Below, piece by piece: positions 3,730-62,491 of a stretch of DNA of 64,000 nt; position 1 is the first letter of the stretch, and every line of letters begins with the position of its first letter. Both the position numbers and the translations under genes were made by a program. The DNA is taken from positions 38,341-102,340 of the forward strand of contig CAYPFT010000001.1 in NCBI GenBank assembly GCA_964410165.1, in the 5' to 3' direction. Source of the stretch: an uncultured Candidatus Saccharibacteria bacterium. Its GTDB lineage: Bacteria > Patescibacteriota > Minisyncoccia > Phycocordibacterales > CAIJYI01. The notes below the pieces were generated by a model. That model searched no databases. It was not told the DNA's origin and was given only the letters and a program-made list of their open reading frames with translations.

Positions 3730-5385
3730 TTACATATCCGTATAATTTGGGCCACTGCCGCCTTCCGGCGCAACCCATGTGATATTTGAGAACGGGTCCT
3801 TGATATCGCAGGTTTTGCAATGGACGCAGTTTGCGGCGTTGATTTGAAACCGCTTCGCGCCGTTTTCGTCCGTAATGATTTCATACACTCCGGCGGGACA
3901 GTATCGTACGGCCGGTTCTTGGTAGAGCTGCAAGTTGAGTTCAATCGGAACGCCGGGATGGCGTAAATGCAAATGCACCGGCTGATCCGGTTCATGTACT
4001 ATATTTGCCCGATAGACCGAAGCCATTTTTCCGAAACTTATTTTTCCGTCCGGCTCGGGGTACTCTATCTTCCGAGATAGTTTTGCGAGCTTGAGCCAAG
4101 CATGGTCGGAAACTCGATTTCTAAGCGTGACAGATAATTTTCCTCGAAAAATATTCTGCTCGAGGAAAATCCACATCGCTCCGAGAAAAGTGCCGAACTT
4201 TGCGAGTGCGGGACTCCAGTTCCGAGATTGATGCAGTTCTTCATATACCCAAGAATTGCGGTATCTCTCGTCCATATCGGGCGTTTTTCTTTGCGTTAGT
4301 ATAGTGTCAAATATCGCTTCCGCCGCAAGCATTCCGGTTTTCATCGCGGTGTGGTTTCCTTTGATTTTTGCTCCATTCAAAAATCCGGCATCATCCCCGG
4401 CAAGCACTCCTCCGGGGAAAGACAGTTTCGGTACGGATTGAAATCCGCCCTTTATGATGGCGCGCGCTCCATACGATATACATTCTCCGCCTTCCAAATA
4501 TTCTCTGATTTTCGGATGCTCTTTCCATCGTTGAAACTCCATGTACGGGTCAAGGTATGGATTTTCATAATCAAGCGCCGTGATAAAGCCGAGCGACACC
4601 TTGTTGTCTTCAAAGTGATAAAGAAAGCCGCCTCCTTCGGTGTGATTGTCGAGCGGCCAGCCGAGAGTGTGAAGGACGAATCCGGGTTTGTGTTTTTGCG
4701 AATCAATGCGCCACACTTCTTTTATCCCGATGCCATAGTGCTGCGGGTCTGAATCTTTTTGCAATCCAAACTTTTCTATCAGCTGTTTGCCGAGATGCCC
4801 GCGGCAACCTTCGGAAAAAATGGTGAATTTGGCTCGTATTTCCACACCCGGCTGGTAATCGCTTTTCGGTTTCCCGTCTTTTCCGACTCCCATGTCTCCG
4901 GTAAGTACGCCTATGACTTCGCCCGTTTCACCATACAATATTTCCGCGGCGGCGAATCCTGGGAAAATTTCCACGCCCATCGCTTCGGCTTGTTCGCCAA
5001 GCCATCGGCACAGTTGCCCCAAGCTGATGACATAATTCCCTTCATTCCGCATAGTTTTCGGAATGAGGGAATGCGGAATTTTTACACCCCTCCTCTCACC
5101 GGAAAAAAAATGCAATTCTTCTTCCGTAAACGGCACATGAAGCGGTGCACCCATTTCGCGCCAGTCCGGGAAGAGCTCGTTCAAAGCTCTCGGTTCAAAC
5201 ACGGCGCCGGAAATAATATGCGCTCCAACGTATGCGCCTTTTTCAAGAACGCATACGGCGAGTTCTGTTCCGGTTTCCGCCGCGAGCTGTTTTAAGCGGC
5301 ACGCGGCGGAAAGTCCGGATGGTCCGGCGCCGACAATGACAACATCAAAGTCCATCACTTCGCGTTCCGCATAATTCATATCCAT
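3730..5385 (-). CDS. Electron-transfer-flavoprotein:quinone oxidoreductase / FixC-FixX-like flavoprotein with a C-terminal 4Fe-4S ferredoxin domain
   Basis: 551 aa. N-terminal FAD motif DVVIVGAGPSGLSAA. C-terminal CVHCKTCDIKDP ferredoxin-type cysteine motif. Lies adjacent to etfAB. Confidence 0.8.
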   Translation of the reverse strand: MDMNYAEREVMDFDVVIVGAGPSGLSAACRLKQLAAETGTELAVCVLEKGAYVGAHIISGAVFEPRALNELFPDWREMGAPLHVPFTEEELHFFSGERRGVKIPHSLIPKTMRNEGNYVISLGQLCRWLGEQAEAMGVEIFPGFAAAEILYGETGEVIGVLTGDMGVGKDGKPKSDYQPGVEIRAKFTIFSEGCRGHLGKQLIEKFGLQKDSDPQHYGIGIKEVWRIDSQKHKPGFVLHTLGWPLDNHTEGGGFLYHFEDNKVSLGFITALDYENPYLDPYMEFQRWKEHPKIREYLEGGECISYGARAIIKGGFQSVPKLSFPGGVLAGDDAGFLNGAKIKGNHTAMKTGMLAAEAIFDTILTQRKTPDMDERYRNSWVYEELHQSRNWSPALAKFGTFLGAMWIFLEQNIFRGKLSVTLRNRVSDHAWLKLAKLSRKIEYPEPDGKISFGKMASVYRANIVHEPDQPVHLHLRHPGVPIELNLQLYQEPAVRYCPAGVYEIITDENGAKRFQINAANCVHCKTCDIKDPFSNITWVAPEGGSGPNYTDM

Positions 5386-5388
5386 AAT

Positions 5389-6345
5389 TTACCTCCTCTC
5401 ATCAAGAGCGTTTCGCATGGCGGAGATGACCTCAAAGAGATCCCCGACGAATCCGATATCCGCGATTTCAAATATCGCGGCTTTCGGGTCTTTGTTTACG
5501 GCAATAATCGTACCGGCATCTTTTATGCCTGCACAATGCTGGGGCGCTCCGGAAATCCCGAAAGCGATGTAGATTTGCGGAGCGATGGTTTTCCCCGATT
5601 GTCCGACTTGGCAGTCATTCGGTATGAAGCCCAAATCTACCGCAACGCGCGATGCTCCGACGGCGGCTCCAAGCTTCTCCGCCAATTGGAAGAGAAGCTT
5701 GAAATTTTCTTTACTGCCGACCCCGGCTCCGCCTGAGACGACAATGCGCGCCGATTGAAGTTCCGGTCTTCCGCTCGCTTCGCTTTTTTCGAGCGAGAGG
5801 AAACGAGTGTGATTCGGTATCGTTGAAACGCGCTCAAGCATGAGTATCTTTGCATCGCCGGTTCGCGCGACTTCTTTGAAAGATGCCATTCGAACCGTTC
5901 CGCACACATACGGCGCACAAACTTCGGTTGTTACAATGCAATTTTCCGCATATGCCGGATTTTCAAACACTCTCGAATCCACCACGCGCATGATGTTGCT
6001 CACTTGCGGGACGCCGAGAAGCGCCGCCACTCGCGGCAGAAGATCCTTCCCGAAAGAAGTTCCGGGAGCGAAGATGTGGCTATAGTTAAGCGCAAGAAAT
6101 ACGGAAACGATTTCCGGCGCAAAAATATTTGCCACAGGATGGGCATGGGCATTGTCTCTGATTACAAAAACCGATTCCGCGCATTCAAGCATCGCGGCTT
6201 GTTTTCCGAGAGAGTCTGCGTTTTCAGGAGTGGCAAATACCGCAATGCCGACTGTTTCCGCCGCTTCATGGGCGCAGGCGACCGTTCTTGCCGTACTTCC
6301 GTTAAGCGTTATGCCGTCATGTTCGGCGATTACAAAAGCTTTCAT
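5389..6345 (-). CDS. etfA: Electron transfer flavoprotein alpha subunit
   Basis: 318 aa, MKAFVIAEH..., with FAD-binding C-terminal region (SGAPQHCAGIKD...). Lies between etfB and ETF-QO. Confidence 0.85.
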   Translation of the reverse strand: MKAFVIAEHDGITLNGSTARTVACAHEAAETVGIAVFATPENADSLGKQAAMLECAESVFVIRDNAHAHPVANIFAPEIVSVFLALNYSHIFAPGTSFGKDLLPRVAALLGVPQVSNIMRVVDSRVFENPAYAENCIVTTEVCAPYVCGTVRMASFKEVARTGDAKILMLERVSTIPNHTRFLSLEKSEASGRPELQSARIVVSGGAGVGSKENFKLLFQLAEKLGAAVGASRVAVDLGFIPNDCQVGQSGKTIAPQIYIAFGISGAPQHCAGIKDAGTIIAVNKDPKAAIFEIADIGFVGDLFEVISAMRNALDERR

Positions 6346-7115
6346 AAGAGTACCCCTCGTTCTGTAAGTAATGAAATAAATTCATCAATGCTTTCGGCAC
6401 GAATGCCTTTGGGGCGCACAGGCGGAGAGCTTACTCGAAGAATTTTTGTCATCGGCGACATGTCTACTCCCAAAATTTCTGGAGAAAGCGTTTCAATCGG
6501 TTTCTTTTTCGCTTTCATAATATCGGGAAGTTTTGCCCGGCGCGGTTCATTGAGGCGTAGATCAACCGAGATTACCGCCGGCAAATCTACCGAAAGGGTT
6601 TCAATCCCCCCATCAACCTCCCTTATCGCCGTTGTTCTTTCTCCGTCAATCGTGATTTTTGAAACCGATGTCGCTTGCGGAAAGCCAAGCAGAGCGGCAA
6701 GCATTGCCGGCACTTGTCCGGCATCGTCATCGGTCGCTTGTCTACCCATGAGAACAAGACCAGGAGATTCCTTTTTAATGAGAGACGCGAATATCCGCGC
6801 CGCGCAAAATGGCTCTCGGCATTCGTTCGTTACGACATGAATCGCGCGATCGGCGCCGATGGCAAATGCCGTGCGCAATACATCTTCCGCGACCTTGTCT
6901 CCGATCGTTACGGCGATCACTTCGACAACCATTCCATTTATCAATCCGGACTCTCTCATGCGAATCGCTTCCTCAAGAGCAACCTCATCGAAAGGGTTCA
7001 TCACCATCTTTACTCCGTCGGTTACTACGCCGGATCCGTCCGGGCGTATTTGAATTGTCAATGCGGGGTCAATGACCCGTTTGACGCCAATGAGAATTTT
7101 CATTTTTTCGTTCAT
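6342..7115 (-). CDS. etfB: Electron transfer flavoprotein beta subunit
   Basis: MNEKMKILIGVKRVIDPALTIQIRPDGSG... The start at 7115 was chosen because GTGAGGTGA lies 7 nt upstream. Overlaps the etfA start by 4 nt. Confidence 0.85.
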   Translation of the reverse strand: MNEKMKILIGVKRVIDPALTIQIRPDGSGVVTDGVKMVMNPFDEVALEEAIRMRESGLINGMVVEVIAVTIGDKVAEDVLRTAFAIGADRAIHVVTNECREPFCAARIFASLIKKESPGLVLMGRQATDDDAGQVPAMLAALLGFPQATSVSKITIDGERTTAIREVDGGIETLSVDLPAVISVDLRLNEPRRAKLPDIMKAKKKPIETLSPEILGVDMSPMTKILRVSSPPVRPKGIRAESIDEFISLLTERGVLL

Positions 7116-7304
7116 TTTTTTCACCTCACTTATTTTGTTAATTTCAATGAAACAAGATGTTTCTGTACTTATCAGTAGCAATAAAGTATGAATATGTCAA
7201 TAATTGACTACAATGCGATAAAGTAGTAGCCTCGGGAAAGATATTGACAAAGAGATTAATTGCTTTGCAATTTTTCACAACCAGCAGAAAGAGGTATAGA
7301 GAGA

Positions 7305-8653
7305 TGAACAAAACAAGATTTGACAAACGCATTGTTTTCGCAGGTGCGTGTCGTACCGCCGGTGCCAGCGTTCTTACCGGCATTGGCGGTGGCGGATTTT
7401 GGAGTAACAGCGCGCATGAACTCATGACGACTTGTGTACTTGAAACTCTGCGCCGCACCAATGTTCCGATCGGGGATGTTGACGGCGTTGTAATGGGAAC
7501 TTGCATGCATGACCCGCGCGTGCTCAATGTCGGGCGCATTGTTGCTGTACTTGCGGGACTTCCCGAAGAAATTCGCGAATCGTTTTTCCTCGGCGAGTAC
7601 CTGAGCGTGGAAACCGTATCAAACAGGTCGCTTGCATCGCATGTGGTTGGCGATACGGTGAGTTTCAACTGCGGTTCGGGACTTGTTTCAATCATTAACG
7701 CCGTTCGTCGCCTTCTTTTGGGAGAAGGAAAGGCATACATTGCCGGTGGTGGAGAAAGCATGTCGCATGCTCCGCTTCAAATACCGCGGACGGCAAAAGG
7801 TGAAAAGCCGTACAGCCAGCGGGACTTTGTCGTCAAGAACGGGGAAAATCACGACCTCTTTGTCGCGATGGAAAACGGCGTGACGGTTACGGACGCATTG
7901 CTTCACGGTTTACGCGATCCATTTACCGGATTGCATTACGGAGCGACGGCGGATCTCGCCGCGGTAAAGTATGGCATCACACGTCGGGAACAAGACAAAG
8001 CGGCGGTGATTTCCCACTCTCGCGCGCGGAAAGCTCGCGATGCCGGGTACTTTGCTCCGCAGATTGTTCCCATACGGACTCGCGATGCGGAAGCGCGGAT
8101 AATTGATTTGGACGAAGGAATTCGGACCGACCTTACCGAAGGAGTCCTCGCTTCCCTCAAACCGTACTTCACCACGGACGGCACGGTAACGGCGGCGACG
8201 AGCGCTCTCGTTTCCGACGGTGCGGCGAGCATGCTTGTCATGACGCTTGAAGAAGCGCTTCATAGCGGCATCGCTCCGGACGCTGAAATCCTTGACTATG
8301 AGTTCGTGGCGGGCGACCCATCGTATATGGGCGTTGTCCCCATTCTTGCCATTCAGAAAATTTACGAACGGTGGGGATTTGGCAAAGATACCGAGAATCT
8401 CATGCATATCAATAATGCCGCTTTTGAAGCAACCAACTTGTCCGTCCAAAAGCTCGCAGAAGTTCCGAAGAATCGTTGGAATTGGTGGGGGGATGCTATC
8501 TCCGGCTTCGGTCATGCGGTGGGCGGAAGCGGCGCGATGCGCACGGTAGAGGGAGCGTACATGCTCAAATTCCTTCCGGAATACGACTACGTACTCGTTT
8601 CTTTCTGCGTCGGCGGCGGACAGGCGGTTGCACTGCTTATCGGGCGCGTCTAG
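7305..8653 (+). CDS. Thiolase (acetyl-CoA C-acetyl/acyltransferase)
   Basis: N-terminal nucleophile motif SFNCGSGL. C-terminal GFGHAVGGSGAM and CVGGGQAV thiolase signatures. Start at MNKTRFDKR with AGAAAGAGGTA upstream. Confidence 0.8.
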
Positions 8654-41233: not shown

Positions 41234-43381
<2,148 letters not shown>

Positions 43382-51379: not shown

Positions 51380-51860
51380 AAACGGATATGCCAGTAAAAA
51401 CAAAAACCGACTGATGCCGGTTTTTGCGCCAAACTTGGTGGAGATGGGGGATCGGTCACAAGTATTTTTTCTGACAAAAAATCTTGCGACCCCGGCTCGC
51501 GGTTTTTGCCTTGTGCTTCGCACAAACAAAAACATCGCTGCGCCTTTCAATCCCCCCACGTGAGCAAAGCAGTTTGCTCACTCATCTCCACAACTCAAAA
51601 CAACAAACCGCCCTAAATCGGGCGGGTTGTTTTGGCTGTGGAGATGGGGGGAATCGGTCACAGATAAATTTTTGTTGCTACAAAAATTTTCCGCGACCCC
51701 ACCTCGGCTGTTTTGTCGCTTGCGAGCGATAAAACATGCCTGCGGTTTTCGATTCCCCACGGAAGCCAAGCAGTTGGCTTCCTCCATCTCCACCGAATTT
51801 TGGCAAAACAAAAACCGACTGATGCCGGTTTTTGCGCCAAAATTGGTGGAAACTAATGAA
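51380..51860. repeat. Array of degenerate repeats derived from the ssrA 3' end (old att remnants) plus 45-bp direct repeats
   Basis: tggagatggggg(g)a(a)tcggtcaca occurs at 51438 and 51643. Inverted ...catctccac... occurs at 51585 and 51784. ~110-bp diverged repeats lie at 51484-51595 and 51690-51800. The 45-bp direct repeat aaaacaaaaaccgactgatgccggtttttgcgccaaaNttggtgga lies at 51393 and 51804. Confidence 0.6.
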
Positions 51861-52175
51861 TGACGTTAGAACCTATATTCTGGAACCAGATGTGTGCTCT
51901 TCCCTTAAGATCGTTCAATCGTGGTAATGGTTGAGGGACACTAGAATCACTTGAGTGGGTAGTTTACACTCTCGGTTGGTATTTCTACCACTTTGAATAG
52001 AACCACCATCACATCCTACTCTCCAGGATGTTAACTATGTTAATGACATTCATTAACTGAATAAAAAAAATAGGCCTGAAAAAGTGCCTATGGGGTAACG
52101 GATACTTTTCGCGAGATTTATCCGGATTCTTTGTTTGAGTCCATTCCGGACAAGGGGTATAATGATATTGACACC

Positions 52176-53489
52176 ATGCCTCTATCCACTACTGATATAA
52201 AAGATTTATTTGTTTCTTTAGAACCAAGGGAAGATTGGTCATTTCGTGATGTTGGGAGATCTCAGACTACGGCCTTTACTCATGACTATCACCGGTATCC
52301 GGCAAAGTTTATCCCCCAAATCGTGAAGAAACTTATAGAAGATTATGCTCCAAGTGGGACTCAGGTTGTTTGCGATCCTTTTGGTGGATGTGGCACTACT
52401 CTTGTGGAAGCAAAAATGTTGGGTCACAAGAGTATTGGATTTGATATAAATCCAGTTGCGAAGTTGATAACTCAAACAAAGACCACTCCAATCAAACCAA
52501 GAACTCTCACTAATTACAGAAGTAAATTCTTGGAGGATTATGATAATGCTCCCACGGTATCGTATGAACACCACCCCAGGATTGGATACTGGTTTGAGCC
52601 AGATATGGTTCGAGAGCTGGACAGAATATATTTTGCTATAAAGGAAATAAAAAACCACAATGTTAGAAGGTTCTTCTTGTGTTCTTTTTCACACAACTTG
52701 AAAAATTGCTCGCGTTGGTTAATGAAAAGTATTAAACCAACTATTGATAAGGAAAAAGTGCTACCTAATCCAAAAGCGACATTCTTGCGTCATCTTGATT
52801 CGATGATACGAAAGAATGAGCAGTTTTACACTTCGTTAGTTCAGTCTAAGTACACGAATGTCCCAGCGAAAATGTACAGGAGGGATTCGACAAAGAAGTT
52901 TCCTCTGGAAACAAATTCTGTAGACCTCATTATTACATCACCACCTTATGTCACTTCATACGAATACGCTGATTTACATCAGCTATCTTTGCTCTGGTTT
53001 GGGGATGACCCGAAGCATTTCAAGAAGTGGCATCATTTTAGCAAAGAGTTCATAGACTTCAGAAGGACTTTCATAGGCACTAGCTCAAAGGCAGAAAAAA
53101 GGGGCGAGTTCGACAGTGAGATAGGCAATCAAATAGTGAATGCGTTAATGTCTGTGGAGCGACCTTTGGCGATTGATGTTGCGAATTACTTTTTGGATAT
53201 GAAGAAGGTTTTTGCAGAAATGCATAGAGTGTTAAAGCCAGGAGGCAAGGCGTGCATCATAATCGGAAATACAAATCTGCGCGGTGTAGAGATTTCCAAT
53301 GCTCAGGTTACTGCAGAGCAAATGCAAGTTGCTGGGTTTAAAAAACTCGATTTCATCAAGCGGGAAATACCCAACAAGATGATTACTCCCTGGAGAGATT
53401 TAGACAGTGGCAAGTTCACCGGCAAGGATAATCCTTCAAAAACTAGAGCTTATGAGTTTGAGTATGTTGTTGTGATGGAAAAAGTTTAG
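52176..53489 (+). CDS. DNA amino-methyltransferase (N6-adenine or N4-cytosine; motif I DPFGGCGTT, motif IV SPPY)
   Basis: CDPFGGCGTTLVEA SAM motif and IITSPPYVTSYEY catalytic motif. Start chosen at MPLSTT, 11 nt after a TATAAT. Confidence 0.8.
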   Translation: MPLSTTDIKDLFVSLEPREDWSFRDVGRSQTTAFTHDYHRYPAKFIPQIVKKLIEDYAPSGTQVVCDPFGGCGTTLVEAKMLGHKSIGFDINPVAKLITQTKTTPIKPRTLTNYRSKFLEDYDNAPTVSYEHHPRIGYWFEPDMVRELDRIYFAIKEIKNHNVRRFFLCSFSHNLKNCSRWLMKSIKPTIDKEKVLPNPKATFLRHLDSMIRKNEQFYTSLVQSKYTNVPAKMYRRDSTKKFPLETNSVDLIITSPPYVTSYEYADLHQLSLLWFGDDPKHFKKWHHFSKEFIDFRRTFIGTSSKAEKRGEFDSEIGNQIVNALMSVERPLAIDVANYFLDMKKVFAEMHRVLKPGGKACIIIGNTNLRGVEISNAQVTAEQMQVAGFKKLDFIKREIPNKMITPWRDLDSGKFTGKDNPSKTRAYEFEYVVVMEKV

Positions 53490-55774
53490 TCTTCTCCAAG
53501 TTGCTCTGCTCTATTGGTGAAAGAAAGGTCAAGAATAAACTTGCTTATAGCTTTAAGTGAGTTGGGAATTGCCCAATCTCGTTTGTCGGGCTCATTTTTC
53601 ATTTCAAAAAACATTGCAATAGCATAAAGATAAATGCTGGCGAAAAATCGTTTTTGGATCGTAGACATCATATCTCCAGATGCATACTTTGGATTTCTTT
53701 TTGGAAATTCAATAAGTACGTCGGGTTCTTTATTTATGTAGACTGTAATTCCTTCTTGGTCTTCCACAACCTCAGCGATATCAACTCCAGTCCATCGTTT
53801 ACCAGATGGCGAAGCCCAGTCTTCTTTTGTCCAGTCTTCTTTGGGAATATATTTTCTTTCCGGGAGTTTAAGGGCAAGTTTTGTCGGCTGTTTTGGAGTA
53901 CCAGGCTTTCCTACATGCGGTTCTTCAAATTCACCTATGATTATTTTCAGCTCAACTTTGAGTGATTCCTGATTTGGTCGTGTAAGTTCAAAAGTCACAG
54001 TGTCGGTTTCTCCCGGTTTTGCGCCTTTGGCTGGTTCAATACGAATAGGCAAGAAGCCGTCTTTTAATGAATACTGATTGATTTGAACCAATTTTGATGC
54101 TGTCCAGCGAAACTCACCGCTGTCTTTGGTTCGTATGAGGTAGTCATTCTGCGCGTCTGTTTTTATTCTCAATCGAGCGTAACGATTGAAAGGAATTGTT
54201 TTTTCATTCTCCTTGAGTTCAAAGAATGTAGGTATGTATTCTCCTTTGTATTCTTTTTTATTTTGTCCCTCGGGTCTCTCTGTGGGCACCTCTTCTCCCA
54301 CATTCAAGAGTGAAGCAAGAAAAGGATTGTCTTTAACCAATCGACCTATATAACGTGATAGGTCTTGGTCTTCTGGTTGAGCATTCTTAAGTTTTCTTTC
54401 TTTGTACTCGCGATTTAACTCTTTCAGTGTTTCATCACCTTTAATAGAGTCAATGAGTCGTTGTTCAAATTCTTCTCTCTCCGGTATGTCAATGAGTCCA
54501 CTTCTTGCAGTATGGAAAACCTTGTTTGCTTCGTGGCTTGCGTTTGATAAATCAATGTGGATTGTCATGAACGGGGCGAGGTCTGGTAACAAGCACTCTG
54601 TTTTTAGAAAGTTTACGGAGTATGTATGTTGAGCTTGTCCGTTCACAGTTAGAAAGACTTTTTCTGTCTGGCTCTTATATGATTTCCCCTGCTCACTCTC
54701 ATCATTGAGAATGACTATTTCAATATTTCTTAACCCAAAAATACCTAACTCTGCTTTGAGCGGTAACACTTGGCGAACAATCTCCTTATCTGAAAATTGT
54801 TTTTTTAGAAGTCTCCAAAGACCGTAGATTCTCGTGACTTTATTTTTATCGGAATAACCTCGAAGCTGAGTACGAAGCTCGTTTATTTGAATTGGCAATG
54901 GCATTGAGAAGTACCTCTTGTTGATTTCACGAGCTAATTCTTTTTCTCTTTGACCGGTTATGAAAAGGTTGCTATTTCTAAGAGCGTAACTATATAGACG
55001 AACAAAACTTCCACTCTCAAAGCTACCCCCATCTGGCAAGATTTTAAGAGGTTCAAAAGGAATGGATGGTACATTGTTGTCTACAACGCAGTATTCATAG
55101 CGTTCTGCCTTAAATCCGGGTTCGTACCATTCACGGACTAGTGAAAATCCCCAAAGATCTTCTGCGCCGTTTTTTATATTTGGAGCTCGTCGTGAGAGAA
55201 CGAGTTGATACCCATTCCCACAGAACTTCAAAGCGGCGGAACCTCCTTGGTTGTATACACCATGAGCGAATTTTATCCTGATTTTATTTGAGCCACCTAT
55301 TGAAAGAAATGTTTTTGGAAAATCGTTCGGGTGTTGTCCTTCACCAGAGTCGAACACTGATATTGTTGGTTTGTCAGGAGAGCCCTCACCAGTTATACGA
55401 ACAGTCTTTAGGGCAATTTCTCGTACTTCTTTATCAGATAAGTCAAAGTCTGCGATTTTTTTACCAAAGAATTGTTTTATTGCTTCTCCCTGGCTTTGCG
55501 GAGCTGACGGTGAGGTAGGATCTATTCCGGTGTCCAAACAGAATCTAACTAATAGCGCATCGATTCCATTTGTAATTTTCTCAACCAAAGCACCAATGGG
55601 ATCTGGTGCTTGAGCCTTGATAGTTCCAGCATTGTTTTCCTGTCCGCCGTACGGTACCCATTTGCAAGTTTTGAAAAACGGGTGTGTGCTAATCAATTCC
55701 GTGACCTTTTCTTGGCTGGTCGCTTTTATGAGTTCCAAGAGAACATCTTTATTTAGCTTTTGTTGAGGAGTCAT
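53486..55774 (-). CDS. Large (762 aa) uncharacterised protein with N-terminal GHKL/MORC-like ATPase motifs; candidate restriction/defence partner of the methyltransferase
   Basis: Bergerat-fold motifs ALVEKITNGIDAL (ExxxNxxDA) and ISVFDSGEGQ (DxGxG); a glycine-rich segment KFAHGVYNQGGSAALKF follows. Convergent with the MTase gene, with 4-nt overlapping ends. Start chosen at MTPQQK, which follows the stop of the small upstream ORF by 4 nt. Confidence 0.5.
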   Translation of the reverse strand: MTPQQKLNKDVLLELIKATSQEKVTELISTHPFFKTCKWVPYGGQENNAGTIKAQAPDPIGALVEKITNGIDALLVRFCLDTGIDPTSPSAPQSQGEAIKQFFGKKIADFDLSDKEVREIALKTVRITGEGSPDKPTISVFDSGEGQHPNDFPKTFLSIGGSNKIRIKFAHGVYNQGGSAALKFCGNGYQLVLSRRAPNIKNGAEDLWGFSLVREWYEPGFKAERYEYCVVDNNVPSIPFEPLKILPDGGSFESGSFVRLYSYALRNSNLFITGQREKELAREINKRYFSMPLPIQINELRTQLRGYSDKNKVTRIYGLWRLLKKQFSDKEIVRQVLPLKAELGIFGLRNIEIVILNDESEQGKSYKSQTEKVFLTVNGQAQHTYSVNFLKTECLLPDLAPFMTIHIDLSNASHEANKVFHTARSGLIDIPEREEFEQRLIDSIKGDETLKELNREYKERKLKNAQPEDQDLSRYIGRLVKDNPFLASLLNVGEEVPTERPEGQNKKEYKGEYIPTFFELKENEKTIPFNRYARLRIKTDAQNDYLIRTKDSGEFRWTASKLVQINQYSLKDGFLPIRIEPAKGAKPGETDTVTFELTRPNQESLKVELKIIIGEFEEPHVGKPGTPKQPTKLALKLPERKYIPKEDWTKEDWASPSGKRWTGVDIAEVVEDQEGITVYINKEPDVLIEFPKRNPKYASGDMMSTIQKRFFASIYLYAIAMFFEMKNEPDKRDWAIPNSLKAISKFILDLSFTNRAEQLGED

Positions 55775-55781
55775 CTTTTTA

Positions 55782-56000
55782 TAGTTTAAAGTCCCGTCTC
55801 TTGGGGAAGTGGAATTTTGCTTTTGTGTTTCTGACATTTCGTTCTATTTCGGAAAAGATTTTGTTTATCTCGTCTTCAGTGTAGTCGTAAACACTCCTGT
55901 TCGCACAGTTTCCAAGAACCTTAAGACGTTTTAAGACCATGTTCGTCCGGAGAGTGGCGAGTCTTACAAAACGATCTCGATTTGTTTCTTTTCCTTTCAT
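55782..56000 (-). CDS. Small basic ORF translationally coupled to the large GHKL-like gene
   Basis: 73 aa. Its stop lies 4 nt before the ATG of the large gene. TATAAA lies directly upstream of its own ATG. Confidence 0.3.
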
Positions 56001-56343
56001 ATTTTTTATACTACAAGGGTTGTTTTATATTTGCAAGGGCGTAACGTATTTATGTAGGGTAGCTTATACATGAGTAAAAGTAAAGTCAAGAAAGCAGAAA
56101 GTGGAATTTTACTTTCAGGGGGGAAGGTAATACCATGTAAATACAACTGAATATCGTGCTCGAAAGAGCTAGGACCTAAACCAGTAGATTTGTCTCTGGC
56201 ATGGTCTCAAATCGTTGAGGATAGAAAACCCGTCATTCAGGGCGTCCTCAACGTTATAGGGGGAAACTCCTATAGGGCCGCAAGGCCTCCTGGTGGCGGG
56301 TTTTGTGTATCCCACCAGGAATTATCAATTAACAAAATTAGAT

Positions 56344-56571
56344 ATGACTGGTGCAATAAAATACAACATCATAGGTCTTTGGGTAGTGGTCGTTGGATTG
56401 GCGTTTATGACACTGAGTGGATTAAGTAGTTCTCGAAGTCAGTTCGAGCAACTCAAGAATGCTCTGCGAGCACAGGAAAGTTTTAATAACTCACTTGTTC
56501 AACAGTTGAATTTGCAGGGTGCTGTGAACGAAAACCTACTGAATTTCGATGGAGCGATCATCAACCAGTAA
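56344..56571 (+). CDS. Small membrane protein, hypothetical
   Basis: MTGAIKYNIIGLWVVVVGLAFMTLSGL TM segment, 75 aa. Confidence 0.25.
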   Translation: MTGAIKYNIIGLWVVVVGLAFMTLSGLSSSRSQFEQLKNALRAQESFNNSLVQQLNLQGAVNENLLNFDGAIINQ

Positions 56572-57005
56572 GTGCACGAAGTTCACACATTCACAATAAT
56601 ATGAAAGAAAGAGAGACGAACAACTCATCGGGGATTATTGCAATTTTTATATTACTGCTGATTCTTGTTCTTTGGTCGTTGACTTGGGATACGGATGAAG
56701 AGCAAGAGCCGTCAGTTCTTGATTCTCCAGAGTTCTTTCAAGAAATGTATGAGCTTGGCGGAGGGCAAATCAAAGAATAGTTTTAGCTTCTCTGGCAACC
56801 TCACTCTTTTTGGACATCTCAAATCAAAAGTAAAGAAACTGGGCACGGAGTGCTTCTGGGGGTAATCGATTAAGGGGATGGACACATCAAGTGTGCTCTG
56901 TGACATCACGGGCACATCTGAGACACTTTCGGTGGGTTGGTAATGGTATCTATCATCTAAAGTTGCTTTCTACCAATACGGCATGGTTTCCGTTAAAATT
57001 GAAGA

Positions 57006-57683
57006 ATGACTCAGGGCAAAATAGAACCAAGACTGCTCGATGAGCTTGAGCGTCTCTTCCAGCGTGAATCTTTTGGTATCGAAGTCATTTTGAAAAGGGC
57101 TAAAATCGGGATTCCTATTCTGGATGGTTTTGAATCCAACCAGAAGTATCTTTCTTGGCTGAAAACACACAAAGATAGATTTTTTGATATTCAGTCAGCA
57201 AGAGCGGACTTAGCTCGAAAGTTTAAGCTACCTCTCCCTCACTCTCAATGGATTGAAGGGTATTTGCTACTTGGAAAAAAGTTTAAGGATTTTGATACAA
57301 CTATCCCTTTTGGGATGTCATTTTCTCGTGGATGGGATAAGGCGGGTTTTTCGTGTGCATTTGAATTTGATAAAGATGAAGAATGCGTCAACATTAAGAT
57401 TCTTCCGGGGGCAAGTTATCGGGATGTGAGTAAATTCATTCGTGATAATAAGGGTGAGATTGAGAAGGCGTTGAGCTCATTTAAGCATAGAGTAGTGCCC
57501 ATTCGAGTACGGAGTCAAAAAGAGCGTGATGAACTTGTTTATGCTTGCTACAAGAAGGGGTTATTGGATCGGTATGGGAGAGATAAGACTTCTGATGGTG
57601 TTTGGCTTCCAGATGAGATTTTGAATATGGATATGGATATGCGACGGAAAATCATTGAGCAACAAATCACATTGAGAAGTTAA
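57006..57683 (+). CDS. Hypothetical island protein
   Basis: 225-aa ORF. No motif recognised. Confidence 0.4.
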   Translation: MTQGKIEPRLLDELERLFQRESFGIEVILKRAKIGIPILDGFESNQKYLSWLKTHKDRFFDIQSARADLARKFKLPLPHSQWIEGYLLLGKKFKDFDTTIPFGMSFSRGWDKAGFSCAFEFDKDEECVNIKILPGASYRDVSKFIRDNKGEIEKALSSFKHRVVPIRVRSQKERDELVYACYKKGLLDRYGRDKTSDGVWLPDEILNMDMDMRRKIIEQQITLRS

Positions 57684-57926
57684 GTGTAAACGCTTAACGG
57701 TTTATCGCGGGACTTCCGTTTTCTTTAGACTGCCTGGTGTAAGGCAGTTTTTTTATGGCATTCACACAAAGGTCGATTCAAAACTTCAAGCGGTTGTATC
57801 TCCAAGAATTCGAGGAGGAGCTTTCGGATGCGGAAGCAGAACGGAGGGCGGGATATCTCCTAGAAGTTTATAGGGTCGTCTTTGGACTGCCAAGCGTAGA
57901 GACGTTCTTTGACAACAAAATAGACG

Positions 57927-58478
57927 ATGAGAAAGCAAAGTGAGCTAGTCACTATCTGGGAGAGTGTGTCGATTATTCCCGGATGGTTGCGGTTGCTGTG
58001 GATGACGAAGCAGTACTCGGATGAGGAACTGGATGAGTTGGAACAGATTGATGATGAGTTTCGTGCTTTTTCCAGAGAGGAGGAAATCAAACATCGGAAG
58101 TGGTTGCGGGAGAATCTCCCTCGGACTACAGATGGGTGGTTGAAGATTTTTCCAGAGGCAGAGAAACTCATCCCTCGGAAGAAACGGAAGAATCAACGGA
58201 GATTCGAGGAGATGCTGGAAGTAGCGAGGGATGTGGACTTGGAGGATGTGGTATCGGAATACGTCGATTTGCGACGGGGCGGTACGCATCGGTTGGTCGG
58301 GCTATGTCCATTCCATGCAGAGAAGACACCCTCATTCGTTGTGTTCACGGATAACCCCCACTACTACTGTTTTGGGTGTCATGAGCATGGGGATGTCATT
58401 ACATTCGTGAGAAAAATTAAAAACTTAAAATTCAAAATGGCTGTGCTGGTGCTGTATAGGTACTCACAGCAAGATTAA
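57927..58478 (+). CDS. CHC2 zinc-finger protein (DnaG-primase-type zinc-binding domain only)
   Basis: VSEYVDLRRGGTHRLVGLCPFHAEKTPSFVVFTDNPHYYCFGCHEHGDVITFV matches the primase CHC2 finger. The start may be at the internal ATG at 58002. Confidence 0.6.
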   Translation: MRKQSELVTIWESVSIIPGWLRLLWMTKQYSDEELDELEQIDDEFRAFSREEEIKHRKWLRENLPRTTDGWLKIFPEAEKLIPRKKRKNQRRFEEMLEVARDVDLEDVVSEYVDLRRGGTHRLVGLCPFHAEKTPSFVVFTDNPHYYCFGCHEHGDVITFVRKIKNLKFKMAVLVLYRYSQQD

Positions 58479-58482
58479 AAAT

Positions 58483-60168
58483 ATGAGCAAGAAAAAAGAA
58501 AAAGAAATTGTGGAAAAGAAATCCATTGATCAAATTGCAGAAGAGGAGAAAACAAAGAATGAGAATCCTACTCCACCAAATGAAGCAGATACGGCTGATG
58601 GTGAAGATGTTGAGTGGCCGGGTGTGTCGTGCATTCTGCAAGACGGGTCATTAGTCGAGATGTTGCATGATTCGGTAAAGCGGACTACTAAGTTGGCGGT
58701 GTATAAAGACGGCAAAGTAAGTCTTGAGGATAGCGTGCGGTTCGATGATAGGACGGTGTTTAAGCCATTAGCTCCCAATCAAAGTCTTCTTGAGACTGGG
58801 TACATTTTGTTTCCTTCGGAGGTCGGAGATTATCAAAGTAATGAAGCCCTGTATTACGAAGTGAGAGCGTTCGTAGATAAATATGTGCAACTTCAAAATG
58901 AGTTTCTCTCGGTCGTTGCAGTCTACATCATGATGAGTTGGGTATACGACAAGTTTAGGAGCGTTCCCTATCTGCGAGTGACAGGTCTCTGGGGAAGCGG
59001 AAAATCTAGATTGTTGTCGGTGGCGGGAAATCTCTGTTACAAGACGGTGATGGCGGGCGGGTCAATCAGTAATGCGGCTTTGTTCAGGACTCTTGATTTG
59101 GTGAAGCCAACTCTTGTGTTTGACGAAGCCGAACTTAACGAAAAAGAGTCAACTGAAATGCGGATGGTTCTACGGCAGGGCTACAGTGCGGGTACTCCGG
59201 TTTCGCGGATGGAGAAGTTACCAAACGGAAAGATGTATATCCAAACATTCGATGTCTTTGGTCCAAAGATTATCGCTTCTTTGGCTCGATTCCATGATGT
59301 TGCTCTTGAAAGTCGATGTCTCACAGGTTGGATGCCTCCACACATGGATAGTGGAAGACCCATTGAGTTAACCAAAGCATTCAAGGAGGAAGCGTTGGCA
59401 TTGAGGAATAAACTTCTGATGTTCAGGTTTAAGAATCATCATCTGATGAGTGCGGACGAGAGTGCGTTGGGAGGGATAAGTCTTCCTCGGTTGAAGCAGA
59501 CGGGACTTGCGGTGATGAGCGTGGCGAAAATGCTTGGGGTACAACCAATCGAAGATGTAAAGAAGTTTCTGGTTGAGTACGAACAAGAACTCGGTATTGA
59601 GCAAGCAGACTCGGTAGAAAATGACATTCTACTCTGCGTGTTAGATCTTCTTACCCAACCAGGAATCAGGTATGCGGGCAAAATTCGTACGGGTGTGGAC
59701 TTGGCGGAGAAGTTCAACAATCTTCACTATGAAGACTACTCAAACAGGGAGACGAAAGAGTACAACTCTAGTTCGATGGGGGTGATGAAGTATCCGGGGT
59801 CAAAAGTGTCTGCGAAGAAAATCGGTTGGTATGTGCGGAAGATGGGCTTTCGAGTGGATAGAGATGCCCGGGGCTTCTACATCTCTATTGTGAAGGAGTA
59901 TCCAAAGATTCGGTTGCTGGCGAAGCGGTACGGGCTTGATTCTCTATTCGAGCTTCCAGAGGGCAATCTCAACGGAGTGAAGCGAGTCGTGGACGCTGCT
60001 ACTAAGGCACAAAATTTGAAGGCGCAGGAAGAGCGGAAGCAAAAGAGGGAGCTTGAAGAGAAACGGAAGAAAGAGGCGGAGGAGAGGGAGCGAAATCGTA
60101 AACCAATGTCAGATGAAGAATACAAGGAGATCTTTGGAGAGAACTCTCTACCTAAAGATACTCTTTGA
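58483..60168 (+). CDS. P-loop NTPase, putative replication/primase-associated ATPase of the island
   Basis: Walker A VTGLWGSGKSRLL and Walker B PTLVFDEAE. C-terminal K/E-rich tail. Confidence 0.45.
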   Translation: MSKKKEKEIVEKKSIDQIAEEEKTKNENPTPPNEADTADGEDVEWPGVSCILQDGSLVEMLHDSVKRTTKLAVYKDGKVSLEDSVRFDDRTVFKPLAPNQSLLETGYILFPSEVGDYQSNEALYYEVRAFVDKYVQLQNEFLSVVAVYIMMSWVYDKFRSVPYLRVTGLWGSGKSRLLSVAGNLCYKTVMAGGSISNAALFRTLDLVKPTLVFDEAELNEKESTEMRMVLRQGYSAGTPVSRMEKLPNGKMYIQTFDVFGPKIIASLARFHDVALESRCLTGWMPPHMDSGRPIELTKAFKEEALALRNKLLMFRFKNHHLMSADESALGGISLPRLKQTGLAVMSVAKMLGVQPIEDVKKFLVEYEQELGIEQADSVENDILLCVLDLLTQPGIRYAGKIRTGVDLAEKFNNLHYEDYSNRETKEYNSSSMGVMKYPGSKVSAKKIGWYVRKMGFRVDRDARGFYISIVKEYPKIRLLAKRYGLDSLFELPEGNLNGVKRVVDAATKAQNLKAQEERKQKRELEEKRKKEAEERERNRKPMSDEEYKEIFGENSLPKDTL

Positions 60169-60508
60169 GGAAGTTAACTTCGTTCACATCGTTAATGTGG
60201 GGGTGAGGGTAAGTCATACTCTCACCCCTCTTAGCGTGTGTGCGAATCTACCCAAAGTTGTTAACACTTTTTTGGGATTATTAACCTATACATATATAGA
60301 ATAATGTGGTATAATATATTTATGAAAATAAAGTATCTAAGCCATATTTTCTAATCTTGTATGGATTTCGAGTCACTCAAAGATTGTGTAATCGTAGACA
60401 TGATTGAGAAAGTCAAAAAAATGACTCGGGATGAGCTTGAGAGTCGTGTGATCGATTTTGAATCTCGAAAAATCGAAACTCTCAAAACCTTAAATGAGGT
60501 AATAGATT

Positions 60509-62200
60509 ATGGAAACAAAAACAAAACTTAGATATGTAGCGTATGCTCGTAAGTCGACTGACCAGGAAGAAAAACAAATCACTTCCATTGAAGATCAGTT
60601 GCGGGAAATTGAGCGGATAGGTGCTGATTGTCACATTACAAAGAAACTCACGGAAAAACGGACTGCTAAAACTCTGGGTCGTCCTGTTTTTGCTGAAATG
60701 TTGCAGTTGATTCTGGATAAGAAAGTAGACGGGATTGTTTGCTGGAAGCTGAATCGGTTAGCAAGAAATCCAATAGATGGAGGGCAGATAATCTGGATGT
60801 TGCAAAATGGGGTTATCAAAGAAATCAGGACTGATGATGGTATCTACACTCCAGAGAGTGACATGATAATGCTTCACATCCACTTCGGGATGGCTCATCA
60901 GTTCAGTTTGAATCTCAGTAAGGACATCAAGAGAGGTTTACAGGGTCGTCTTCGTGAGGGAGTTCGTCCAAGTATTGCTCCTATCGGGTACATAAACAGT
61001 CAGTATCACATCAAGAGGATGGAAGAAATCTTGGTTGATGAGGAGCGGTTCCCAAAAGTAAGAAAGTTATTCGATTTAATGCTTTCTGGACAATACTCTC
61101 CTCTCCAGTTGGTTGAGATTGCGGATAAGCAACTCCATCTGGAAACAAGGGGGACGAAGAAATGGCCGAGAAAAGCGATGAGTAAGTCAAATATGTATCG
61201 GGTTCTCACCAATCCTTTCTACTATGGGTCGTTCGAGTTTCCGGAGGGTAGCGGTGATTGGCATGTTGGTAAACATAAACCAATGATTACGGAAGAGGAG
61301 TATGACAAAATCCAATCTCTCCTTGGTCGTGAGGGTAGACCGAGACCGAAGACTCACATCTTTGCTTACACTGGATTGATGCGGTGTGCAGGTTGCCAGG
61401 CTCGCGTGACTGCTGAAGAAAAATGGAAACACCAACAGAATGGGAATAGTCACCATTACATCTACTATCGGTGTACGGGTAGTCAGGGTCCAGAGTGTTT
61501 GGAGAAGTCGGTTGAGGTGAAAGTTCTGGAAAAGCAAATTGATGAATTTCTCTCTAAGATTCAGATTCCACCAGAGTTCCATGAATGGGCTGTTGAGGAG
61601 TTGAAGAAACTCCATGAAAGAGAAAAGGGTGATAGGAACTCGCTGATTGTGAAGCATGAGCAGGACTATAAGGACTGTGTATTCAAGCTGGATCAGTTGA
61701 TGGAGCTTCGATTGGAGGGCAAGGTTTCGGATGAGATGTTCTCTCGGAAGGAATCACAACTCTTGAAGCAGAAAGCAGAATTGAAGAGATTGTCTGATGG
61801 AGATGATAAGAGAGTAGATGACTGGTTGGTTCGTCTTGAAAGCACTCTCACCTTTGCGGAGAGAGCCAGAGAGGAATTCCAAAAGGGTGATATTGCGAAG
61901 CGGAGGCAGATTCTTACTGCTTTGGGGACTGAGCATATCCTCAAAGACCGGGCAATCCACATCAATACGGAAAAACCACTCCTTGTACTTCAAGAAGTGG
62001 TTTCCGAGAGCAATCGTCTGTTAGATAAGTTAGAACCTCCCAAAAGTGTTGGAAACAATGGGCGGATTAAACAAATCTATGACAAAAGTTCATCAATGTG
62101 GAGATGGGGGGAATCGAACCCCCGTGCAAAAAGGAATTCTCGCTCCTTCTACAAACATAGATTATTTGTTTTTGGTTTAAGTGGAAAAAGTAAGGAATAA
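60509..62200 (+). CDS. Large serine recombinase (resolvase/invertase-type N-terminal domain plus recombinase and zinc-ribbon domains)
   Basis: YVAYARKSTDQEEKQITSIEDQ catalytic-serine motif. The recombinase domain (RPSIAPIGY) and CxxC...C zinc ribbon (RCAGCQA...YYRCTG...C) are both present. The 3' end reads through the ssrA terminus. Confidence 0.85.
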   Translation: METKTKLRYVAYARKSTDQEEKQITSIEDQLREIERIGADCHITKKLTEKRTAKTLGRPVFAEMLQLILDKKVDGIVCWKLNRLARNPIDGGQIIWMLQNGVIKEIRTDDGIYTPESDMIMLHIHFGMAHQFSLNLSKDIKRGLQGRLREGVRPSIAPIGYINSQYHIKRMEEILVDEERFPKVRKLFDLMLSGQYSPLQLVEIADKQLHLETRGTKKWPRKAMSKSNMYRVLTNPFYYGSFEFPEGSGDWHVGKHKPMITEEEYDKIQSLLGREGRPRPKTHIFAYTGLMRCAGCQARVTAEEKWKHQQNGNSHHYIYYRCTGSQGPECLEKSVEVKVLEKQIDEFLSKIQIPPEFHEWAVEELKKLHEREKGDRNSLIVKHEQDYKDCVFKLDQLMELRLEGKVSDEMFSRKESQLLKQKAELKRLSDGDDKRVDDWLVRLESTLTFAERAREEFQKGDIAKRRQILTALGTEHILKDRAIHINTEKPLLVLQEVVSESNRLLDKLEPPKSVGNNGRIKQIYDKSSSMWRWGESNPRAKRNSRSFYKHRLFVFGLSGKSKE

Positions 62201-62491
62201 TCAAAATCTTTCTCCACCCTAGCTTCTTTGTTTTGAAAATAAATCGAAGCGGTTTATATTTTCTATCCCGATTTGTATTACACCCGTATCCCACCCTCGG
62301 GAGAGGAGAGATAAAGACGCCGGTTTACGCTAAAGCGAATCCGGGATGAAAAGCAAAGTATGGTGATACAACGCTTTTCACCTTAGAAGAAAGTTTTGCA
62401 ACTATCAGTTTCCTGTGCGCTATAACGGGTGAACAGGAGTATCCGGTTTGCAAAGCGAGAAGACGACTTCTTGTCGAAGCCAGTCATCCCC
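62098..62491 (-). ncRNA. ssrA: tmRNA (SsrA)
   Basis: 5' end GGGGAUGACUGGCUUCGAC matches the tmRNA consensus. Acceptor pairing GGGGAUG/CAUCUCC carries G3:U70. T-arm GGGGGUUCGAUUCCCCC. Resume context GAUAGUU-GCA followed by a 24-codon tag ending FALA-UAA. Confidence 0.75.

Follow-up and report, generated by a model that had tools for sequence, protein, structure and literature searches.

Gene layout of the cassette and its island

Within the window, the stretch of 64,000 nt that was analyzed as a whole, three genes form a cassette encoding a DNA methyltransferase, a 762-aa ATPase, and a 73-aa basic partner protein. The frame of the N6/N4-type methyltransferase gene (52176 to 53489, plus strand) is open back to a TTG at 52131 (52131 to 53489), but the ATG at 52176, which yields 437 aa, was favored because the homologues are 436 to 438 aa long. 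Ahead of it lies a promoter-like TTGAGT-17-TATAAT at 52135 to 52163, where a scan of the region for promoters came out below chance expectation. The gene converges on a minus-strand operon and shares 4 nt with it (53486 to 53489), in agreement with the initial annotation, which had described a methyltransferase overlapping an operon of a 73-aa basic ORF and a large protein. The large ORF runs from 53486 to 55837 and would give 783 aa from an in-frame upstream ATG at 55837, but the 762-aa form (53486 to 55774, minus strand) is the likely product since homologues of about 760 aa start at M22. The small gene (55779 to 56000, minus strand) has its stop 4 nt ahead of the 762-aa start, and its translation is predicted to be coupled to that of the ATPase gene.

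The cassette lies on an integrative island of about 10.5 kb (51637 to 62116), recognized in part by a drop in GC content. A 20-nt segment of the tmRNA 3' end is directly repeated at its two borders, at 51637 to 51656 and 62097 to 62116. This repeat identifies the tmRNA gene (62098 to 62491, minus strand) as the integration target, at its 3' end and next to a large serine recombinase (60509 to 62200). A CHC2 primase-like gene (57927 to 58478) and a 561-aa P-loop ORF (58483 to 60168) are also carried, and no helicase or nuclease was found in the cassette or the island. The repeat and the recombinase bear out the mobile island that had been proposed.

The methyltransferase

The methyltransferase matched PF01555 (5e-22; score 79 bits, cut-off 26.7) and the PADLOC MTase_II model (2e-56), as expected of an N6/N4 amino-DNA methyltransferase. 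Both motifs on which its earlier assignment as an amino-methyltransferase had rested were located, the AdoMet motif DPFGGCGTT at 52374 to 52400 and the catalytic motif SPPY at 52938 to 52949. Motif I thus precedes motif IV, which is the permuted (alpha-like) order, and the SPPY motif suggests that the product may be N4-methylcytosine.

The large protein is a MORC/MutL-like ATPase with no recognizable nuclease

Residues about 38 to 425 of the large protein (54500 to 55663, minus strand) comprise a GHKL ATP-binding domain followed directly by an S5-type transducer, the arrangement of the MORC/paraMORC/MutL class, and the top structural matches were MORC3, SMCHD1, MORC2, and MutL. All hallmarks of the GHKL superfamily are present: motif I (ExxxNxxD) as EKITNGIDA at 55556 to 55582, motif II (DxGxG) as DSGEGQ at 55334 to 55351, and a glycine-rich ATP lid, GVYNQGGSA, at 55235 to 55261. 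The Bergerat motifs noted previously are therefore where they had been placed, and their residues are invariant among 64 homologues with identities down to 26% (E65, K66, N69, D72, D142, G144, E145, G146, Q147, G172, and G177), a degree of conservation that, judged from the alignment, is far beyond chance. R214, R301, and R424 are also invariant, and the transducer has a basic pI of 9.6. The window protein had no Pfam match at E ≤ 10, so it is not recovered by the PF13589 (HATPase_c_3) profile; precomputed PF13589 matches exist for only four distant homologues, and the single one inspected carries the label "faint." Neither the large nor the small protein, whether queried alone or as a profile built from 64 or 40 sequences, found a match in Pfam (to E = 10), NCBIfam, PADLOC, PHROGs, or PDB.

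Beyond the ATPase module, an Ig-like beta-sandwich occupies residues about 515 to 614 (53933 to 54232, minus strand) and is duplicated in family variants of about 850 aa. Secondary structure places a small beta unit and a C-terminal three-helix bundle at residues about 639 to 761 (53492 to 53860, minus strand), and the bundle may serve as a constitutive dimerization element. This segment contains EPDVLIEFPK (53699 to 53728), in which a possible PD-(D/E)xK nuclease had been seen. That reading fails because the triad is poorly conserved, with D685 kept in 23, E689 in 26, and K692 in 33 of the 64 sequences, and because the local fold is not that of a nuclease. The large protein likewise has no D...(D/E)xK triad on an alpha/beta restriction endonuclease fold, as a Type II enzyme would, and no DQHA(X)2E(X)4E motif of the MutL endonuclease. 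Outside the ATPase module the alignment holds no invariant cluster of Asp, Glu, His, or Lys, and neither the large nor the small protein was found to contain a nuclease or other effector domain.

The small basic partner

The 73-aa protein (pI 10.4) has 661 homologues of 72 to 77 aa, none with a Pfam domain, and their alignment shows a conserved core, RxRFxRLAxxRTNxVLxRLxxLGNCSNRxxYxY. Measured against the ORF-derived start of the large gene in 30 fetched loci, the position of the small gene ranges from 42 nt upstream to 109 nt inside, and in 18 of them it is within 6 nt of that start. An iterative HMM search upstream of the large-protein relatives picked up the small ORF at just 20 of the 78 genome loci; the small gene is thus not a universal feature. 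A suggested role as controller was not supported: the protein has neither a helix-turn-helix (HTH), of the Xre type or otherwise, nor a Pfam match at E ≤ 10, and an alignment of 11 upstream regions shows TTGAC/TATA blocks resembling a promoter but lacks any consistent palindrome that could act as an operator or C-box. A profile search against PDB gave chance matches only and no relative.

Distribution of the family and its gene neighborhoods

The ATPase family falls into about 3,000 clusters when grouped at 50% identity, extends from CPR bacteria as far as Thermoproteota and Methanosarcinales, and carries no annotation beyond "hypothetical" in any database searched. At least 567 loci were found in genome representatives versus 2 in 2.9 million viral contigs; tblastn gave no match in 50,697 phage records and 9 distant ones in plasmids, all labeled "hypothetical protein." By these counts the family is cellular rather than viral. 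Identities of 75 to 91% across phyla, together with the tmRNA-integrated island, indicate that the cassette is horizontally mobile.

We surveyed the neighborhoods of 80 of the at least 567 loci, using crude ORF calling. The small and large genes form the conserved core. In clusters 1 to 3, a methyltransferase is adjacent in 12 of 13 loci, always with a spacing of -19 to +10 nt from the large gene. The complete triad is found in Patescibacteria (L001), Saccharibacteria (L016), and Omnitrophota (L017), in a group of further loci (L009, L029, L030, L032, L036, L051, L054, and L058), in L006, and in an archaeon (L011). These triads are not independent observations, because many descend from the transfer of one cassette. 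The partner itself was gained independently several times. It is of at least four non-orthologous types in differing orientations, namely the convergent type of the window, a co-directional type in L006 that is 25% identical to it, a beta-class enzyme in L011, and a ParB_N-methyltransferase fusion in L018. Eight loci have a methyltransferase 77 to 89% identical to that of the window and a small ORF about 70% identical, but a large protein with an extra Ig domain and only 30 to 33% identity, a pattern that fits diversification of an effector or sensor within a fixed cassette.

Other branches have different neighbors. Of the 22 loci of a distant branch, 20 fall within ssp phosphorothioate clusters, with sspA (PADLOC, 5e-149) directly upstream and reading frames that overlap within the ssp operons; two DNA-marking systems of different chemistry thus have members of the family as partners. 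Elsewhere, YhcG PD-(D/E)xK or HNH genes abut the ATPase gene, and GmrSD, DndB, SIR2, and NB-ARC-TPR genes occur nearby. In many loci the pair, or the large gene alone, has no modification gene beside it (L026, L056, L063, L067, L085, L015, and the bulk of cluster 6), and solitary large genes predominate in clusters 6 and 7. Because an intact large gene in L039 sits beside only a 75-aa methyltransferase remnant, this core hints at being tolerated without the enzyme and may not be obligatorily lethal to unmodified self DNA. The co-occurrence that the initial annotation had proposed to check thus extends well beyond this genome, to Patescibacteria, Omnitrophota, a gammaproteobacterial MAG, and archaea, but the link to a methyltransferase is limited to the branches of the window.

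A proposed modification-linked defense cassette and its alternatives

The reading we favor, at somewhat better than even likelihood, is that of a modification-linked, restriction-like defense cassette with an ATP-gated DNA clamp as its effector. The gene layout, the fold, the invariant ATPase residues, the conserved small and large core, and its repeated independent linkage to DNA-modification genes are observations, whereas we infer its defense function, the direction in which modification would be sensed, the clamp mechanism, and the role of the small protein. The methyltransferase would mark host DNA. Two copies of the large protein would join, as in its structural relatives, both at their N-terminal domains when these bind ATP and at the helical bundles of their C-termini, and so encircle DNA as an ATP-gated clamp. 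Along with the small basic protein, co-expressed in stoichiometric amounts, the large protein would act on DNA that lacks the mark. Because neither protein has a recognizable nuclease, interference would be either nuclease-free, with entrapment or compaction blocking replication or transcription by a BREX-like logic, or carried out with a nuclease supplied in trans. The claim that a GHKL protein here takes the place of the helicase/ATPase of a restriction-modification (R-M) system agrees with the methyltransferase linkage in the branches of the window, but not simply with the rest of the family; since the core occurs elsewhere alone, with nucleases, or in ssp clusters, it is better described as a modification-linked module in a broader sense. 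A stronger form of the favored reading, which we consider rather unlikely, is that the small and large proteins are a nuclease-free, MORC-style immune effector whose ATP-gated clamp entraps or compacts unmarked DNA, that they interchangeably serve amino-methyltransferases and SspABCD, and that they are the missing "restriction" partner of many orphan ssp clusters.

The methyltransferase could instead be an independent passenger, such as an orphan methylase shielding the mobile element from host restriction, beside an autonomous two-gene module that senses something else in defense or performs another DNA transaction. We think this unlikely, although the loci with no methyltransferase, the solitary large genes of clusters 6 and 7, the unfixed type and orientation of the partner, the decayed enzyme of L039, and the tendency of defense islands to produce spurious adjacency all speak for it. 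A passenger would hardly keep the close contact seen in all 12 loci of clusters 1 to 3, even with the 30%-identical variant of the large gene, nor would at least four unrelated enzymes be expected at the same position or a separate branch inside ssp operons with overlapping frames. In L001, moreover, the three genes arrived as one unit flanked by housekeeping genes, and nothing else nearby is a mobile or defense gene. It is quite improbable that the GHKL protein works on the side of modification or repair, either as a MutL-like loader or targeter of the modifying enzyme or as a processor of lesions at modified bases. MutL assists Vsr at Dcm sites, and the missing nuclease, the linkage to both methyltransferase and Ssp modification genes, and the lack of obligatory toxicity without the methyltransferase would suit such a role. 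On the other hand, the DQHA motif is absent, no MutS, Vsr, or UvrD neighbors were seen in the surveyed neighborhoods, the distribution is patchy and shaped by horizontal transfer, carriage on an integrative island is atypical of repair genes, and the neighbors GmrSD, SIR2, NB-ARC-TPR, and YhcG belong to defense. A conventional Type II R-M system, with the small ORF as C protein and the large protein as a sequence-specific endonuclease with a novel catalytic site, is the least probable of these readings. Its gene order (small ORF, large gene, convergent methyltransferase) mimics C-R/M systems, PADLOC assigns the methyltransferase to Type II, and restriction enzymes are notoriously difficult to find by homology, but the catalytic residues that are invariant in the large protein are those of an ATPase, with no second invariant cluster, the small protein bears no HTH/Xre signature or upstream palindromic operator, and the core persists without the methyltransferase.

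A MORC/MutL-like engine with no database annotation is thus repeatedly linked to two DNA-marking chemistries in a family of about 3,000 clusters, and the absence of a nuclease makes its mechanism a genuine question rather than a matter of routine R-M annotation. Recognizable immunity is sparse in Patescibacteria. If the favored reading of a defense effector is correct, the cassette would bring a compact three-gene system into the known repertoire, notable for these bacteria, and would offer a tractable bacterial model of MORC-type clamps that read epigenetic marks. It would also be a candidate partner for ssp clusters without SspE or SspFGH, which are the large majority of 2,678 sspBCD occurrences (PMC8092258).

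Comparison with known systems

When the large and small proteins of the window and five divergent homologues were compared with PADLOC-DB v2, which includes Mza, MADS, Shedu, BREX, and Dnd/Ssp effectors, no match was found at E ≤ 0.01. The system is absent from all defense models tested, as the label "uncharacterized" had implied. BREX is a methylation-based, nuclease-free form of phage exclusion that takes six or more genes. The cassette may resemble it in logic only, with a methyltransferase self mark, ATPase machinery directed against unmodified DNA, and no recognized nuclease; it has three genes and, by PADLOC, no homologous components. Type II R-M systems with a C protein share the small coupled ORF upstream of the "R" gene and the convergent methyltransferase, but here the small protein lacks an HTH, and what stands in the "R" position would be an ATPase clamp with no nuclease fold. 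MutL differs in its endonuclease motif and MutS context, and the patchy, mobile distribution also sets the family apart from it. CapK/CapS kinase-repressor pairs were rejected for their differing architecture, HTH-STAS-GHKL without an S5 domain, and identity with SspFGH, GHKL-Shedu, or the HEF_HK paraMORC relatives was rejected because the domains differ.

The distant family branch beside sspA/sspBCD occupies the place where SspE or SspFGH is encoded, but none of these is a GHKL protein or matches the family in sequence; SspE combines DUF262 with HNH, a Walker A motif is found in SspF, and SspH resembles FtsK (PMC8092258). GHKL-Shedu (VcSduA/paraMORC3) also has an N-terminal GHKL ATPase, whose motifs I to IV are used in phage defense, and a predicted dimeric, clamp-like middle domain proposed to control the effector (PMC12137116). 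VcSduA, however, is a single gene without a methyltransferase, and its C-terminal DUF4263 PD-(D/E)xK nuclease, which has no counterpart here, is essential for defense (PMC12137116).

The closest theme is that of the prokaryotic MORC/paraMORC GHKL ATPases of R-M systems (Iyer, Abhiman & Aravind 2008, PMC2292703). Shared with it are the GHKL and S5 module, the methylase linkage, RE-fold or HNH nucleases in some branches, and high mobility; the methylase of those operons is present in the cassette, whereas YhcG or HNH nucleases are neighbors solely in other branches. An SF-II helicase accompanies about 70% of the conserved prokaryotic MORC gene neighborhoods, and their methylases are mostly cytosine methylases, labeled DCM in the gene map (PMC2292703). 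The cassette, in contrast, has no SF-II helicase partner, its family is linked to N6/N4 amino methyltransferases and in one branch to ssp phosphorothioation, and the window protein and most relatives lack PF13589 or any other Pfam match, even when E values up to 10 are allowed. A C-terminal helical linker, Ig-like sandwich, and helical bundle, as well as a 73-aa basic partner that looks obligate in several branches, further distinguish it. On the best reading, the cassette varies the paraMORC/R-M theme known since 2008 and had not itself been described before.

Gene content of the cassette

ORF calling recovered three intact genes in the region, and every motif quoted in the initial annotation was found in the place reported for it. 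The methyltransferase gene occupies an open frame on the plus strand (52131-53489), and translation from the ATG at 52176 gives a 437-aa protein whose length matches that of its homologues (436-438 aa). The enzyme is an amino-methyltransferase of the usual PF01555 type (79 bits; PADLOC MTase_II, 2e-56) in which the FxGxG motif comes ahead of SPPY; from the latter motif, its predicted product is m4C. The small ORF (55779-56000, 73 aa) and the large ORF (53486-55837, 783 aa) both lie on the minus strand. Because about 60 close homologues of the large protein, 754-766 aa long, align from M22, its product is likely the 762-aa form starting at 55774; with this start, the small ORF stop would sit 4 nt upstream of the large gene. 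The methyltransferase and large genes are convergent, and their stops share 4 nt (53486-53489).

The large protein contains a GHKL ATPase module

Neither the single sequence of the large protein nor a 64-sequence profile matched Pfam (to E = 10), NCBIfam, PADLOC, PHROGs, or PDB sequences, and its homologues are uniformly annotated "hypothetical protein." Its structural matches were led by the MORC3 ATPase (score 18.2, alignment length 287), followed by the SMCHD1 ATPase module (17.4, 315), TRAP1 (15.8, 311), the MutL N-terminal domain (15.4, 282), and MORC2 (15.2, 313), after which came type II topoisomerase ATPase modules. These alignment lengths indicate that both a Bergerat domain and an S5-type transducer are present, the latter part being basic (pI 9.6). 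Across 64 aligned homologues, the most divergent 26% identical, motif I (E65, K66, N69, and D72), motif II (D142, G144, E145, G146, and Q147), and the lid residues G172 and G177 were invariant, as were R214, R301, and R424. The GHKL/MORC-like call made in the initial annotation is therefore correct, though the relationship is invisible to sequence profiles.

The C-terminal 270 residues, modeled separately (pLDDT 90.6), are predicted to contain an Ig-like beta-sandwich together with a small beta unit and a bundle of three helices. A possible PD-(D/E)xK-like segment had been proposed here, but its residues are poorly kept among the 64 sequences (D685 in 23, E689 in 26, and K692 in 33), and outside the ATPase module the same alignment shows no cluster of invariant acidic, His, or Lys residues, so we rejected a nuclease of this type in the C-terminal region. 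The ATPase is the only recognizable effector in either the large or the small protein.

The small protein is a candidate partner of the ATPase

A basic protein (pI 10.4), the small-ORF product falls within an unnamed family of at least 661 members, 72-77 aa long and mostly from Patescibacteria, that has no Pfam domain and whose alignment shows the conserved core RxRFxRLAxxRTNxVLxRLxxLGNCSNRxxYxY. Its profile gave only chance matches to PDB sequences. The ORF had been suggested to encode a controller, but the protein has no detectable HTH, and 11 aligned upstream regions show promoter-like blocks with no consistent palindrome. At loci with an identified homologue, the small ORF immediately precedes the large-protein gene, which suggests that its product acts as a protein partner of the large protein rather than as a classical controller. 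Among the 30 loci with a match, the end of the small ORF ranges from 42 nt short of the ORF-derived start of the large gene to 109 nt past it, and is at most 6 nt from that start in 18.

The cassette lies on a mobile island

GC content falls from about 0.48 to 0.39-0.42 over the island of about 10.5 kb that bears the cassette. A 20-nt direct repeat, TGTGGAGATGGGGGGAATCG, at 51637-51656 and 62097-62116 duplicates the 3' terminus of the tmRNA gene, which occupies 62098-62491 on the minus strand and is adjoined by a gene for a large serine recombinase with Resolvase, Recombinase, and Zn_ribbon_recom domains (60509-62200). Taken together, the GC drop, the tmRNA-derived repeat, and the recombinase confirm the mobile island that had been proposed earlier. 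The island also encodes a putative replication module (57927-60168), composed of a 183-aa CHC2 zinc-ribbon (primase-like) protein and then a 561-aa P-loop protein, the latter without a Pfam, NCBIfam, PADLOC, or PHROG assignment.

The left junction (51397-51850) holds, besides the 20-nt att repeat, two further tmRNA 3'-end remnants (at about 51436 and 51844), each preceded by one of two near-identical 46-nt terminator-like copies (51397-51442 and 51805-51850); this arrangement suggests that elements integrated at ssrA one after another and then decayed. At the other end, the recombinase ORF enters the tmRNA 3' end on the opposite strand by about 100 nt, and the element thus seems to supply a replacement ssrA 3' end from inside its own integrase gene. 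Elsewhere in the window, ARAGORN called an unusually long (94 nt) tRNA-Lys(CTT) at 43210-43303, which may contain an intron or an extended arm.

Relatives of the large protein form branches with different partner genes

The survey of large-protein relatives drew on metagenome contigs and on genomes sampled at one per species, in which at least 567 loci were identified and 80 retrieved; branches were drawn from clustering of the proteins and of their neighbor genes. At 50% identity the family resolves into 3,068 clusters (E <= 1e-3), 2,297 of them at E <= 1e-10, and it is nearly absent from viruses, with 2 loci in IMG/VR and 0 in GenBank phages. In the window's own branch, the large protein is 59-91% identical and about 762 aa long, while that of a sister branch is about 845-860 aa, 30-33% identical to the window's, and has a duplicated Ig domain; the small ORF is present in both. 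The genes co-occur widely outside this genome, with a methyltransferase -19 to +10 nt from the large gene in 12 of 13 loci of these two branches. In L001, a Patescibacteria genome, the three genes form a lone insertion immediately following dnaK.

The methyltransferase partner represents more than one orthologue across loci. The window type (77-89% identical, convergent) is the commonest and is found at most loci, while the enzyme in L006 is 25% identical and co-directional, that of L011 (a Thermoplasmataceae archaeon) is of the beta class, and L018 (Methanosarcinales) has a ParB_N-methyltransferase fusion directly beside the core (765-2309). Eight loci (L009, L029, L030, L032, L036, L051, L054, and L058) retain the window's cassette, with the methyltransferase 77-89% and the small ORF about 70% identical, yet their large protein is the variant of about 850 aa with a duplicated Ig-like domain, only 30-33% identical. 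Because of this disparity, the large gene is the fast-evolving or exchanged element of the cassette, which points to effector swapping or diversification within a fixed cassette frame.

More remote homologues, about 800 aa long and 26-28% identical, form a branch that has no small ORF and lies inside ssp phosphorothioate clusters in 20 of 22 loci. Cultured organisms carrying this branch include Flavobacterium frigoris DSM 15719, Chryseobacterium sp. BLS98, and Tenacibaculum. Its ssp-embedded members include L074, L076, L078, L088, L090, and L095 (at about 4830-8400), as well as L007, L013, L072, L081, and L089. In six Flavobacteriia genomes, sspA (PADLOC SspA, 5e-149) is directly upstream of or overlaps the GHKL gene, and sspD/sspC-like genes are found within 2-5 kb. 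These homologues may be an unrecognized phosphorothioation-linked partner.

Further branches consist of a solitary large gene or of a core with the small ORF only. A YhcG/DUF1016 PD-(D/E)xK nuclease is encoded 3-4 nt downstream of the large gene in three Bacteroidota loci (L034, 4466-5500; L037, 3554-4603; L038, 4025-5056), and an HNH-domain protein adjoins the core in Cenarchaeum (L070, 8484-9776). Neighbors at other loci include GmrSD, DndB, SIR2, and NB-ARC-TPR genes. In L039 (Methanomassiliicoccales), a 75-aa N6_N4 methyltransferase fragment (8392-8619, minus strand), which is either a decayed gene or an assembly artifact, lies beside an intact 858-aa GHKL gene.

A proposed modification-linked defense module

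The data fit a modification-linked defense module in the MORC/paraMORC restriction-modification (R-M) tradition. None of the outcomes that the initial annotation had named as refuting its proposal was observed: the fold is GHKL, no housekeeping signature was seen, and the genes co-occur widely. It is conceivable, if rather unlikely, that the small and large proteins form an autonomous pair with the methyltransferase as a passenger, but the tight adjacency of the genes has been re-created repeatedly. Mobility and the defense-island context make a MutL-like accessory role for the large protein in modification or repair improbable. Fold and conservation speak against reading the cassette as a Type II system of the classical C-R-M kind whose nuclease is cryptic, an option that we consider highly improbable.

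Within a defense module, a simple restriction enzyme that kills unmodified self is disfavored because cores exist without a methyltransferase and because the intact large gene of L039 adjoins a methyltransferase remnant. Either a trans-encoded methyltransferase or a sensor that modification stimulates, as in SspE (PMC8092258), would be compatible with both observations.

Structurally related GHKL+S5 proteins dimerize upon ATP binding and clamp DNA. By analogy, the large protein could be an ATP-gated clamp, in which the C-terminal helical bundle would give constitutive dimerization and contacts to DNA would come from the basic transducer together with the small protein. Clamp action may depend on whether DNA carries the methyl mark or, in the ssp branch, the phosphorothioate mark, and candidate interference steps are entrapment, silencing, or nuclease recruitment. 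That one nuclease-free, MORC-style epigenetic clamp serves both methylation and phosphorothioation is a speculative reading that we regard as unlikely.

Comparison with known systems

None of the Pfam, NCBIfam, PADLOC, or PHROG models searched covers the large-protein family or its architecture, and we found no paper on this family or on GHKL proteins tied to phosphorothioate systems. Phage defense has been shown experimentally for GHKL-Shedu (PMC12137116), and the general idea that R-M systems can involve GHKL ATPases dates back to 2008. Iyer et al. (PMC2292703) inferred the MORC/paraMORC R-M systems, from which the window cassette differs in having neither helicase nor nuclease, a novel C-terminal architecture in its large protein, and a small basic partner.
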